A stretch of DNA of 64,000 nt, from contig NC_058368.1 of NCBI RefSeq assembly GCF_018350175.1, positions 70,060,001 to 70,124,000 on the forward strand, given 5' to 3'. Below, in pieces: positions 28,008 through 44,131 of this stretch. The DNA comes from Felis catus. Its lineage: Eukaryota. Within the stretch, counting starts at the first letter, position 1; each line of letters starts with the position of its first letter. The notes below the pieces were generated by a model, which ran no database searches, was not told where the DNA came from, and was given only the letters and a program-made list of their open reading frames with translations. The position numbers and the translations under genes are program-made.

Positions 28008-28701
28008 TTACAATATCCTGTACTACTTTTAAATTTTTTAGCATAGTTTTGTTTATTAATAGAGGCCTTTGGTTCTAAACTGCTTGACTAGTTTTAAGCT
28101 CACATAGTTTCTTAAGCTTTCCTATTTTTTAGATGCGAGTATATGAGTATAAAAGCACTCAACCTTCTGGCTCACTGGTACAAAAGTTACAATGATCAGT
28201 TCCCTTAGGTCATCAAAAACTAGTCACAAAAATAGTTCTTGTATTCAACCTGAATGTGCCACAGGAAAAAAAATATTTTCAAGGTTTTCCAGCTTAGCCT
28301 AGAGGCAAACGTTACTCCAGCCTCCATTTCAGTGCTACTGTCCCTGCTCTGTACATTCCAGAACACATGTTTTCTCTAGGCCATTTATTTTAATACTACT
28401 CCGTAAGGAAGAATAAAATCTCACTCCAGCTTAAGAGAGTTCGCCACACACCCCCGTTAAGACATAATGAAAAGTTCGAATATTGCCAGCAAGATTTAAA
28501 AAAATATGTGTACCCTCTTATGACTCTTCTAGAAAATCGGCTATGAAATAACACCGTTCTTGAGTTCCTTTCTCTCCCATTCCCCTTCACTTCTTCTTGT
28601 GCTCGGTCCTCCCTGTGTCTTGCACGAGCCCAGTGATTAACTTTGGAAATCATCCTGAGTTTGCAAATGACAAAGCCCCACATACGGTCCGTGAGGCAAA
28701 A

Positions 28702-28824
28702 TCACACAACTGAGGACGAGCTGGTCATTCCGTGAACCAGGGTGCTTGTTGGAGTCCCGCTGATGGCATTGAAGATGTGAAGGGAATTCGGTAAAACGCT
28801 CGTCTTCTCCTCCAGTGGGCAAAT
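28702..28824 (-). CDS. DOCK9: DOCK9 terminal coding exon
   Basis: Acceptor AG at 28825-28826; ICPLEEKTSVLPNSLHIFNAISGTPTSTLVHGMTSSSSVV*; phase 0. Confidence 0.95.
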   Translation of the reverse strand: MCPLEEKTSVLPNSLHIFNAISGTPTSTLVHGMTSSSSVV

Positions 28825-29895
28825 CTTGAGGCACAGAAACACAACATTACTGAAGTGTAATGCCCCTAAAGACATTTCTCAAAATGGCGTGTTTCACGTA
28901 ACACAATTTATCATCCAATGGTCACTGTTACTCTGAATGATGGTATGCTCAGAGAGCTCGGCTTTGGCGGTTTGCAGAGGGATTGTGTCAGCTCATCTAG
29001 AAAATGACCTTTTTCAGATCAGGATTTTAAGGGAAAGTCAAGTACAATGGGTTTTGTTTCCTTTATAAAGTACTGAATGGAGCCTTCTCTTCTAGACTCA
29101 CCAGATTATAAGGTGGTGAAGTCTATCTTACACGTACTTGCCAGGGACACGACCTAGCCCTGTCGCTTGGAAAAGTCTTTTAAAATGAGTCCTGAGCATC
29201 TCTGTTTTTCCACTGGCTCCTTCTCTCAGGGTCTTACAGATTTCCATCCTGGGGAAGAGACAGCAGCTGCCCCTATGACCCTGAACAGGTCTCTCTTCAC
29301 ACTCGGTAATGCGGGGGAGAATTCTAGGGGCGAGACTTGACCTACTGACAGGTGGAAATTGAGAGGAACATACACAGTCAGAGGCTCCCCTGGGAAAACC
29401 AAAAGCAAGTCTACTCCAGGTCACAACCCTTTTCGCTTAAGGATTCAAGAGTTTAATCTTCACAGTTGTTGAGATAATGGAAAGTTCAAGGTGCAGTTTA
29501 GAGCACGGCACTGCGAGAAATGTCCATATGATATGGGAGCTTATTCTAACATTATCAGTCCACATTGTTTTCCTACTTTCTTCTCTTCTAGTGCCAAATG
29601 CTGACACCCACTGATCAAACTCTCTGTTACACAGCAATCTGTAAGCTCCATGGAAAAGACCTTGGGCTTTCTCCAAAAACTAATTTTCATGAGACCATCC
29701 CTTTTCTGCTTTATCATTCACACATGTATTTCTTTCATCAGTTCAATTTTTTTCTACTTTTCTACATGCCCGGAAGAGGGTGCCTCCCTCTGCACACACT
29801 TTATGCCAATGTCTGCAGTTATTCAAACTCAGTCATAACTTTACGTGAAGCAGTTTATCGAGGTTCAGAAAAATAAAATTAAAAAATGACATTAC

Positions 29896-29903
29896 CATCC
29901 CAT
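29896..29903 (-). CDS. DOCK9: DOCK9 8-nt alternative microexon (ATGGGATG)
   Basis: Minus strand reads ttgcttgcttttttttcctcctcttccatgctaacacattcag|ATGGGATG|gtaatg. Splicing to the last exon (A...) gives ...HEQ-M-G-TGA, matching the recalled short human C-terminus ...HEQLG. Confidence 0.8.
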
Positions 29904-30861
29904 CTGAATGTGTTAGCATGGAAGAGGAGGAAAAAAAAGCAAGCAAGTTAAAGATCAGACATTTCAGTTAGTTTCCTGCAAAAGAAATTTCCTAACTGGA
30001 TCGTCACATGATATGTTAACTGATATAAGTGGTCCTCGCTTTCATTTGAGAGACTGAACGACAATCGTGTAGGAAACCGGAAAAGGAGTTATGTGCAATG
30101 GAAGTACTCATGTTACTTGTGAAGAATGGCACTGTGATTTGGAAGAAGTCACTGTGGCCGATGGAGAATGGACCCCTACAAAATCAGTACTCTGGAAGCT
30201 GCTCTTTGACATGCACTTAGTTGCCTGGGTAGCTGCCCCTCTGACTACTGAGCCCACATACATGATCCTACTGAAAGGAGCTCATACAGGAAGGTGATAG
30301 TAGCCATGTAACCAGGAAAGATGCCCAAAATAACAAGGACTAGAGAAGCCACCATGAAGAATCCATTAGGGGACCCAAGTCAGTTGTGAACAGTCAAAAA
30401 CTGAACAACCCTGTTCTTTTAAGTGGCGAAAGAGATTTAATGTTAACAGAAAATTCTTTAAACTTAGGCTGGCAAGTCTTGGTCTTTCAAAGGATTGGGT
30501 GAATAAAAAGATTTCTAGGAACAAGCTAGGTATTTCTTTTTTATGCAAGTCTTGTTTTGCTTTGAGCCAGATTAGGGTGGGGAGGGACAGAGCTTCGAAC
30601 CACAACCACCTCTAAGAGTGACAAAAAGGAGGTGGGTGCTGCTCTCCTCTGGTTGTGTTAGATGTTAACAGGTGGGCTAGCTCTTAGCCCTTCCCCAGGT
30701 AACCTGCGCTCAGAGGGCAGCAGCGTGTAGCATGCTACATTACTCTTCAGATACCAAAATTCTGGAAGGACATCAGAAGGTTTAGGCCATCCCAGGGCAC
30801 ATGTGAGAACCCAACTAGCACGTGCTTGCTAAAAATGACAAGAACCGAGTGTGGCACTTAC

Positions 30862-31000
30862 CTGCTCGTGCATGATCTCGGAAAGCTCTTTCGCCATCTC
30901 CCTGTAGTTGGCCTTCATTTCTTCCTGGTACTCTAGCTGGTCCTCTTTGATCAGCCGCTCATTTACCGCTAAGGCTTGACCGCAAGCTTCCACAAATTGC
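30862..31000 (-). CDS. DOCK9: DOCK9 exon (DHR2 end)
   Basis: 139 nt, phase 2 to 0, [46 protein letters not shown]; ttcag/gtaagt. Confidence 0.97.
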
Positions 31001-33389: not shown

Positions 33390-34324
33390 AAATGTAACCT
33401 TCTTTGAAGAAAGGAATTGGATATAAGGATGTGTGTGTATGTGTGTGTGTAAAACATGTGCTAGAATTACCTATATATACTTAAAAAAATCACTAAAGCA
33501 AGAAGCATACAAATCACTGGAAGGAGGTGATTTGCCAATTTCCTTGGAAATCATGTAAGTAAGATACCTTTTAAAAACCAATTATTTTGAAGTATAATAT
33601 ACAAACAAAAAGGTACATATACCATGAGGTCATACCTTATTGAATTTTCACAACTGAACATACATATATAATCAGTAGATAAAAAACTATCTTTTCACTA
33701 AATGGTGCACATTGCTTGGATAACTATATGGAAAAAATGTATCTTGACCCCTATCTGTTACCACATACAATAGATTCCAGCTGGATTGCAGATCTATACA
33801 GGAATACTAAACAAAGGAAGAAAACATAGGAGAACATTTTTGAAACAGATTTAAGAACGAAGTTCTTAAAGAGGGCGCAAAAATGTTACTAATTAAGGAA
33901 AAATTAATTAATTTACCATAAAATGAAAAAATTTCTGTTAATCAAAACAGACCATTAAGAGAGTGAAACTTAAGGTACTTTTTCAGATACAATTTTCATA
34001 GAAACCAGAAAACAACAGTTTTGTAAGGAACCCTACAGCTATTCACACTTCTTTTATTTAGAAGAGTCTTGATGTTTCCAGTTAGGCACCTAGAATTCCC
34101 CAAAGTACTAAAAAGACACTCCTCCAGGTGGGGTTGGGTGGGGGCCCCAAGTCTACCGCCCCCTTCTGGTATCAGGAGACACTGCACAGATACTGGAAGG
34201 TAACTGGGATAACCAGGTCAAGTAGGGATCTACACTAGACCTTGCTGGGCTTGAAATTTACCAAGGTCCAAATGAGCCCCTGCGTCTGTTGCCCTGTGGT
34301 TTGCTTTGACAGTGCTGGGCTCAC

Positions 34325-38245: not shown

Positions 38246-39637
38246 CGGACTTAAGGTCATGACTGTAGAGATAAATGCCCCAAGCTGGCATAGTGACCCC
38301 ACCTAGAAATGTAGTTATCTTGTCTAAGAAGAAGAATTTGCTACTGTGTCCATGAGAAGAACAACTCCTCTCCCCATGGGGAGGGACTACCATTTTTGAG
38401 GACAATACTGTTTGAATTTCACGTGTTATCATTACTCTAAAAGTAGTAGGGGCTCTTTCTTTAAGAAAGCAGGAGTTTTTTTTTTTTGTTTTTTTAATTT
38501 TAACTTTTATCTCAGTTCCTTCCTAGGAAGGGTGAAGAATTCTCTGTAATATGCTGTTCTGAGCTATTTTACAATGAGTCATGTTCTTTCTTTGGTAATA
38601 GCTTTACTGAGATACAGACTCACCCACTGAAAGTGTCCAGTTCAGTGGTGAGAGTGGAGCCCATGTGAAATGTGGCATCTTAACAGGGGTCCTTTCACTC
38701 ATCATCACACTGTTCCCTATTATTGCCCGGCAACATCGGCTTCTAGACAGAGCAATGGACACCTTCCTGGTTCTACTGAACTATCACTCTTTGAAACAGC
38801 GGATATAGACACACCTGGCTTTCTGAGCAGACCTCTCACCGACTTTTTTTGAGGTCAAGAAAGTGTTCTATCTTAGGTTACCCTAGTCACGCTGCTGACC
38901 CCAACCCAAGAGTGGACAAGGTCAAGTTCCCCCAGAGAAGGTAAGAGTCTACACTGTCAGGAACTAGGAAATGATGCAAAACACATTTCTGAGAATGGGT
39001 TATCAATGGCTAACCAGGGTCCAAGGATCTATTAAAGCTCCTGTCACAGCTGAACGGAGAGCCTCTGAAGGCAGTGAGCTTCCTGCTAGGGCCGGTATCC
39101 AAGCTGAGGGTGGCCAGCCACTCTCAGAGATGAGACACAAGGGATCCAACCTCATATCCTATTTATTCACTCAGCCTAAAATCCCTGACCAGGTTCAGGC
39201 CGGGAACTGTGTGAGAAAGACATGTAGGGGTCTCTTCCTGTGAAGGAGACACAGAACCGTATGCAGGGGCTCTTGAGGCCCTGGGCCTGGAGAGGGGTCT
39301 GCATGGGTTTCAGAAGGTGTCTGTAAGTCACCTGAAATTGTGTGCAAAAGCTCTCTGAGGAGATAAGGGCCCACTGGTTTCATCAGATTCTAAAAAAGGG
39401 TCAGTGACTTGACTTCGGGTATGAACTTCTGGTTGAGCAGAAGAAGAAAATGTTAACAAATAGAAAAATGTCAGGAGTATTCAAAAGTAAGCATTAGATA
39501 AATGTTAAAATGAAACAGATATCTGGGGAAAGTTAACTAAGCCTGAAGGGCCCTTCCTTCTAGAAGCTTCTGGATCCCTTCCAGAGAACTCTTTACCTTG
39601 GTGTCCAGGCTAATGTCTGTATGGGATTCTGGAAGGT

Positions 39638-44095: not shown

Positions 44096-44131
44096 CTCCA
44101 CATCTGTTTCACTGTCTGTAAACTGGTATTG
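44096..44131 (-). CDS. DOCK9: DOCK9 36-nt cassette exon
   Basis: ttttataactttatag|CAATACCAG...GTGGAG|gtaatt = QYQFTDSETDVE, phase 0 to 0; matches the recalled human insert AAQYQFTDSETDVE apart from the leading AA. Confidence 0.9.

Follow-up and report, generated by a model that had tools for sequence, protein, structure and literature searches.

MYPT1 exon 24, SERCA1 exon 22, dystrophin exon 78 and synaptojanin-1 (145/170 kDa forms) are familiar examples of small cassette exons, late in a gene, that shorten or exchange a C-terminal docking tail and escape NMD; all are longer than 8 nt, and their functions have been worked out. The closest described counterpart of the exon considered here belongs to human DOCK9 itself. 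The supplements of PMC7935315 catalog an 8-nt DOCK9 exon, HsaEX0020667 (VastDB id; chr13:98796206-98796213), whose PSI is 0 with GFP and 97.6 with SRRM4 in HEK293 cells, 0 in NPC and 82.6 in neurons, and 0 with eMIC-deleted versus 68.8 with wild-type SRRM4 in MCF7 cells. The same source gives a mean PSI of 0.03 over the eight non-neural tissue types having a value, places the exon among 131 exons common to six cell lines, and puts DOCK9 mRNA in neurons at 4.5 times its level in progenitors. In zebrafish, the tables of PMC12626424 pair an 8-nt exon of dock9b, DreEX0028047, with HsaEX0020667 as its ortholog and give it a PSI of 63 in neural tissue, 55 in endocrine pancreas and near 0 elsewhere, with a dPSI of -42 on eMIC loss. 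An 8-nt exon of dock9a, DreEX0028031, has PSI values of 41 (neural) and 42 (endocrine) in the same tables, where no event ortholog is listed for it, and in the eye at 5 dpf it falls from 70.4 in the wild type to 0.85 in the mutant (PMC9303857; 12 of 18 supplement files searched). The human event id is named in no main text of the literature searched, and Dock9 rows are absent from the supplements of two mouse microexon papers (PMC7821500, 8 files; PMC4387716, 5 of 6 files). Two other reports concern separate events: the NOVA2-regulated Dock9 exons, which are 68 and 44 nt long among two of the six rows of PMC4633719, and the DOCK9 microexon given in PMC8627023, which is 6 nt long.

The window, i.e., the whole 64,000-nt stretch of Felis catus DNA that we analyzed, carries the 3′ part of DOCK9 on its minus strand, as traced by a tblastn exon chain, and all features described below for the window lie on that strand. 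The constitutive coding exon that immediately precedes the switch (30862..31000) encodes the final DHR-2 helices and ends with the residues EQ in phase 0 at the donor CAG/GTAAGT; its residues are identical (46/46) to positions 381-426 of chain A of PDB 2WM9, human DOCK9. In the last DOCK9 intron, 958 nt downstream of the end of that exon at 30862 and 1071 nt upstream of the start of the last exon at 28824, we found the candidate exon CAG-ATGGGATG-GTAATG at 29903..29896, which is 8 nt long with AG/GT flanks and falls within the 3-27 nt range of SRRM3/4-dependent neural microexons. Its eight bases (29896..29903) comprise a Met codon, a Gly codon and the TG of a TGA stop, an assignment resting on the sequence, the matching protein ends and the catalogued orthologs. 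The coding part of the last exon (28702..28824) yields a 40-aa tail if the microexon is skipped and, if it is included, provides the A of the TGA and is thereafter 3′ UTR. Two further observations concern the same gene. AATAAA/ATTAAA hexamers in the 3′ UTR at 28394, 28057, 27633 and 27561 suggest alternative polyadenylation. Upstream, a 36-nt exon at 44131..44096, encoding QYQFTDSETDVE, likely corresponds to HsaEX0020665, another DOCK9 exon that responds to SRRM4 (PSI 0 to 41); no match to the catalogued 6-nt DOCK9 microexon turned up in the part of the intron with this 36-nt exon that could be read.

Translation of the window gives a 40-aa tail ending SSSSVV when the microexon is skipped and, when it is included, EQ followed by MG and a stop, of which the microexon supplies the TG and the last exon the A. 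If the microexon is included and the downstream intron retained, the reading is MGW-stop; the tail is lost either way, and a vole model ending LGW matches the retained-intron reading. By the NMD rule, decay is triggered when an exon junction lies more than about 50 nt beyond the stop. Here the stop is completed at the last junction and, unlike that of a poison exon, has no junction after it. NMD would therefore not be expected, in agreement with the high PSI values.

The acceptor has an AG-free zone of 70 nt that opens with a branch-point-like ACTAAC (29967..29972, or -69..-64) and includes a second such sequence, TTTAAC (29947..29952, or -49..-44), either of which may be the one used; TGC also occurs at -42 and -38 in the same 100 nt, and the 30 nt before the CAG are 80% pyrimidines. 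A further CTAAC at -13..-9 is probably too near the AG for use as a branch point. The pyrimidine tract, with CUC/UCU words (29920..29939, or -36..-17), keeps a distance of 17 nt from the AG, and between the two lies a UGC at -15 (29916..29918) that is likely an SRRM3/4 enhancer. This is the arrangement described for SRRM3/4 microexons, with UGC between the branch point/pyrimidine tract and the AG and with the tract distant from the AG (bioRxiv 2024.09.17.613571). The same preprint describes the class as tending toward strong donors; the donor here, GTAATG (29890..29895), comes out weak, at 1.2 bits versus 8.8 for that of the upstream exon, on a rough matrix that gives approximate values.

How often would such a site occur by chance? 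In a scan of AG-(3-27 nt)-GT candidates the thresholds were the microexon's own values, so that its own pass is by construction; it was the single pass among 3183 sense candidates, and one of 3215 passed in the antisense control. The acceptor signature is rare, yet alone no proof of an exon; the proof comes from other species. Two more short AG/GT candidates on the minus strand, one of 3 nt at 38626 and one of 18 nt at 33653, clear a loose filter without UGC and are probably chance; three do so on the antisense control. The first-pass annotation, made from the letters of this DNA, had also named an RBFOX motif. That TGCATG is present (30210..30215), but it lies 307 nt upstream of the microexon and is at chance level, with 6 sense and 11 antisense occurrences in 33.8 kb; it is probably outside the switch, and RBFOX as the regulator is unsupported. 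In RBFOX-enhanced cassettes (U)GCAUG is enriched directly downstream of the exon. One GCATG at about +125 (29765..29769) is a possible RBFOX site of this kind, although near chance against a background of 0.93 per kb.

We infer that HsaEX0020667 is the ortholog of the microexon in the window because the gene, the length, the order, the spacing from the 36-nt exon (human 12.4 kb, here 14.2 kb) and the two-residue human end agree, these being features of layout and product rather than an alignment of the flanks. Protein ends were compared in 415 DOCK9-like proteins from two protein searches (the best 120 of 343 and the best 120 of 1441 matches) and two cluster look-ups (no more than 15 members of each cluster). 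Of the 415 listed, 300 continue past the EQ anchor with the long tail, seven end MG, five end LG and one, the vole model, ends LGW, the remainder being intron read-through (55), an end at EQ (1), other ends (15) and proteins without the anchor (31). The EQ-[L/M]G ends (12 of the 415 listed) include human PDB 2WM9, mouse BAC32480.1, Nannospalax (mole-rat), Dromiciops, koala, platypus, cormorant and sea eagle. Several of these are predicted models, which would nevertheless seem to read each genome's own exon, since MG and LG differ between species. Human 2WM9 was accepted as a short form because of its LG letters and not its chain length, which alone is uninformative: DOCK10 constructs too stop 2-3 residues past EQ. 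By protein ends, the short form is present in placentals, marsupials, platypus and birds, and the published tables extend the 8-nt exon to fish.

The exon thus belongs to the ancient and already known SRRM3/4 microexons, and Felis catus presumably splices it as human and zebrafish do. Much of the first-pass annotation held up: that the 8-mer is a real exon agrees with its flanks and frames and with the matching protein ends elsewhere, the stop across the junction and the swap to Met-Gly were recovered on translation, and membership of the neural SRRM3/4 class is borne out by the acceptor layout and the published human and zebrafish tables. Its human short isoform ending EQLG is matched by 2WM9, its expectation that the event was known in human by the catalog entry in PMC7935315, and its prediction of escape from NMD by the position of the stop at the last junction and PSI values of 83-98. 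The exon is, however, older than it had implied, reaching birds, platypus and zebrafish.

What does the cell lose with the tail? The 300 long-tailed proteins passed a HIFNAIS filter, so that the invariance of HIFNAIS is by construction, and hold 49 distinct tails. All 49 begin with Ile, the codons of which start with A, and for that reason the TG+A stop can form throughout; by these sequences the A at the start of the last exon is fixed across jawed vertebrates. It may be older than the switch, the last exons of DOCK11 and mammalian DOCK10 likewise beginning with Ile. Conservation within the tail is highest over the internal S-L-H-I-F-N-A-I-S-G-T stretch, and Felis catus DOCK11 has a stretch like it. 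The AlphaFold2 monomer model, made for a database DOCK9 C-terminal fragment from a 49-row alignment, reaches moderate quality, with a mean pLDDT of 68 and a pTM of 0.52. It closes its last helix at residue 554, three residues short of the junction at 557, and pLDDT stays below 50 over residues 563-597. The switch is thus predicted to remove a disordered appendage and to leave the DHR-2/GEF domain intact, and the crystallised human DHR-2 chain (2WM9) is the short form.

We are confident of the following reading, for which the sequence, the frames and the matching protein ends are observed here, and neural inclusion and SRRM3/4 dependence in human and zebrafish. In neurons and pancreatic endocrine cells SRRM3/4 likely favor the acceptor and with it inclusion of the microexon; the 8 nt added would place their final TG next to the A that opens the last exon, and DOCK9 would then end EQ-MG, without its conserved, predicted-disordered 40-residue tail but with the Cdc42 exchange domain whole. 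The lost tail would be a docking segment consisting of the internal motif and, in placental mammals, a PDZ-like end, and the switch would alter the location or partners of DOCK9 and not exchange catalysis. A bolder version, which we regard as possible but rather doubtful, is that the last intron of the DOCK-D genes is a shared tail switch. SRRM3/4 would in DOCK9 delete a hitherto unrecognised docking motif shared with DOCK11, LH[IV]F[NC]AISGT, in neurons and islet cells and so redirect Cdc42 activation; the short form in the DHR-2 crystals would be a neuronal minority isoform, and non-neural cells would have a differently targeted protein. No binding partner of the 40-aa tail was found in the literature searched.

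It is just as doubtful, in our view, that the exon is regulated as described and the tail swap affects cells little, as a form of mild tuning. The GEF domain is predicted to be untouched, zebrafish srrm3/4 phenotypes are marked and are contrasted by their authors with single microexon deletions, and an analogous tail swap in EVI5B left RAB11 binding unchanged (PMC12626424). Against this stand the persistence of the 8-nt length and the stop between fish and mammals, apparently with both fish paralogs included, and the strong conservation of the long tail. Text searches, which included PMC6419433, PMC7551865 and PMC13663769 and had subscription papers, VastDB and bioRxiv supplements outside their scope, returned no functional study of the exon or the tail swap.

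Somewhat less probable is the proposal that the exon is spliced as described but that its main effect is the loss of a PDZ-binding end, which would free neuronal DOCK9 from PDZ scaffolds. A class I PDZ-binding motif is a C-terminal [ST]-x-[VIL]. The tail in the window ends SSVV and fits it, but the PDZ-ligand label of the first-pass annotation is weak: of the distinct long tails only 28 of 49 fit, and the other 21 end in Ala, marsupial, monotreme, bird and frog forms among them, such that the motif is not kept across orthologs. Mammalian DOCK10 often ends SAEV, and PMC3436506 reports that DOCK9 co-purifies with AMPA receptor complexes, both in keeping with a PDZ role, but the literature searched held no data on PDZ binding by DOCK9.

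That the exon serves instead to lower DOCK9 output, as a poison exon or through stalled splicing of the last intron, with no stable short protein, is very improbable. The exon does shift the frame, its donor is weak and the vole model retains the downstream intron, but no junction follows the stop, PSI reaches 83-98 and DOCK9 mRNA rises in neurons rather than falls (PMC7935315), and the short form is on record as mouse and human sequence. Least credible of all is that the 8-mer of Felis catus matches AG/GT by chance or is a relic no longer spliced: none of the 19 carnivoran DOCK9 models among the matches listed has the short end and one antisense site passes the same filter, but the main mammalian cluster was represented by only 15 listed of its 4364 members, the 8-mer encodes the exact MG end of mouse, platypus and birds, and the acceptor features are intact.

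Both exon and regulation had thus been catalogued already, and Felis catus adds a species and not a kind. The DOCK9 microexon ranks among the most switch-like SRRM4 targets and has been kept from fish to mammals, and it deprives a Cdc42 activator, one reported in dendrites and spines, of a conserved tail. For annotators it carries a warning, in that 8-nt exons are rare in gene models (short ends in 13 of the 415 proteins listed), and for experimenters another, in that a short cDNA used in non-neural cells would have the wrong end.

Compared with the systems described so far, the microexon in the window shares with human HsaEX0020667 the gene, the 8-nt length and the order relative to the 36-nt exon, and the human DHR-2 chain also ends in EQ plus two residues, but these are Leu-Gly in human and Met-Gly in Felis catus. 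The zebrafish dock9a and dock9b exons are likewise 8-nt neural and endocrine-pancreas exons that drop on srrm3/4 loss (PMC12626424, PMC9303857); they differ in that one flanking intron is only ~100 nt and the dock9a exon has no listed human ortholog, and the likeness is drawn from tables, not sequence. Among the paralogs, Felis catus DOCK10 has a 76-nt cassette in the homologous last intron (C17:207867040..207866965, minus strand), with an AG-free zone of 80 nt and the donor GTATGT. It shifts the frame of the last exon, and the joined tail occurs in 5 of the 120 DOCK10 proteins listed, all rodent; a sturgeon model has a stretch like it. A preprint whose main text does not mention DOCK9 places DOCK10 among ancient dual-coding genes (bioRxiv 10.64898/2026.05.28.727796). 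Both paralogs exchange their tail through a frameshifting cassette in this intron, whereas that of DOCK10, at 76 nt, is not a microexon and gives a new 45-aa tail in place of the two-residue end of DOCK9. The last exon of DOCK11 (on C47, about 4.6 kb after the matching exon) has the LH[IV]F[NC]AISGT stretch in common with the DOCK9 long tail, and its upstream donor is GC, not GT. The last introns of DOCK10 and DOCK11, searched over 5-6 kb for AG/GT candidates, showed no convincing 8-nt exon of this kind; the neural microexon of zebrafish dock11 in the published tables is 12 nt. The closest tested analog is the 10-nt microexon of EVI5/evi5b, which is also driven by SRRM3/4, lies at the 3′ end of the gene for a small-GTPase regulator and changes its C-terminus; it differs from that of DOCK9 in that EVI5 is a Rab GAP and that its partner binding has been assayed and found unchanged (PMC12626424).
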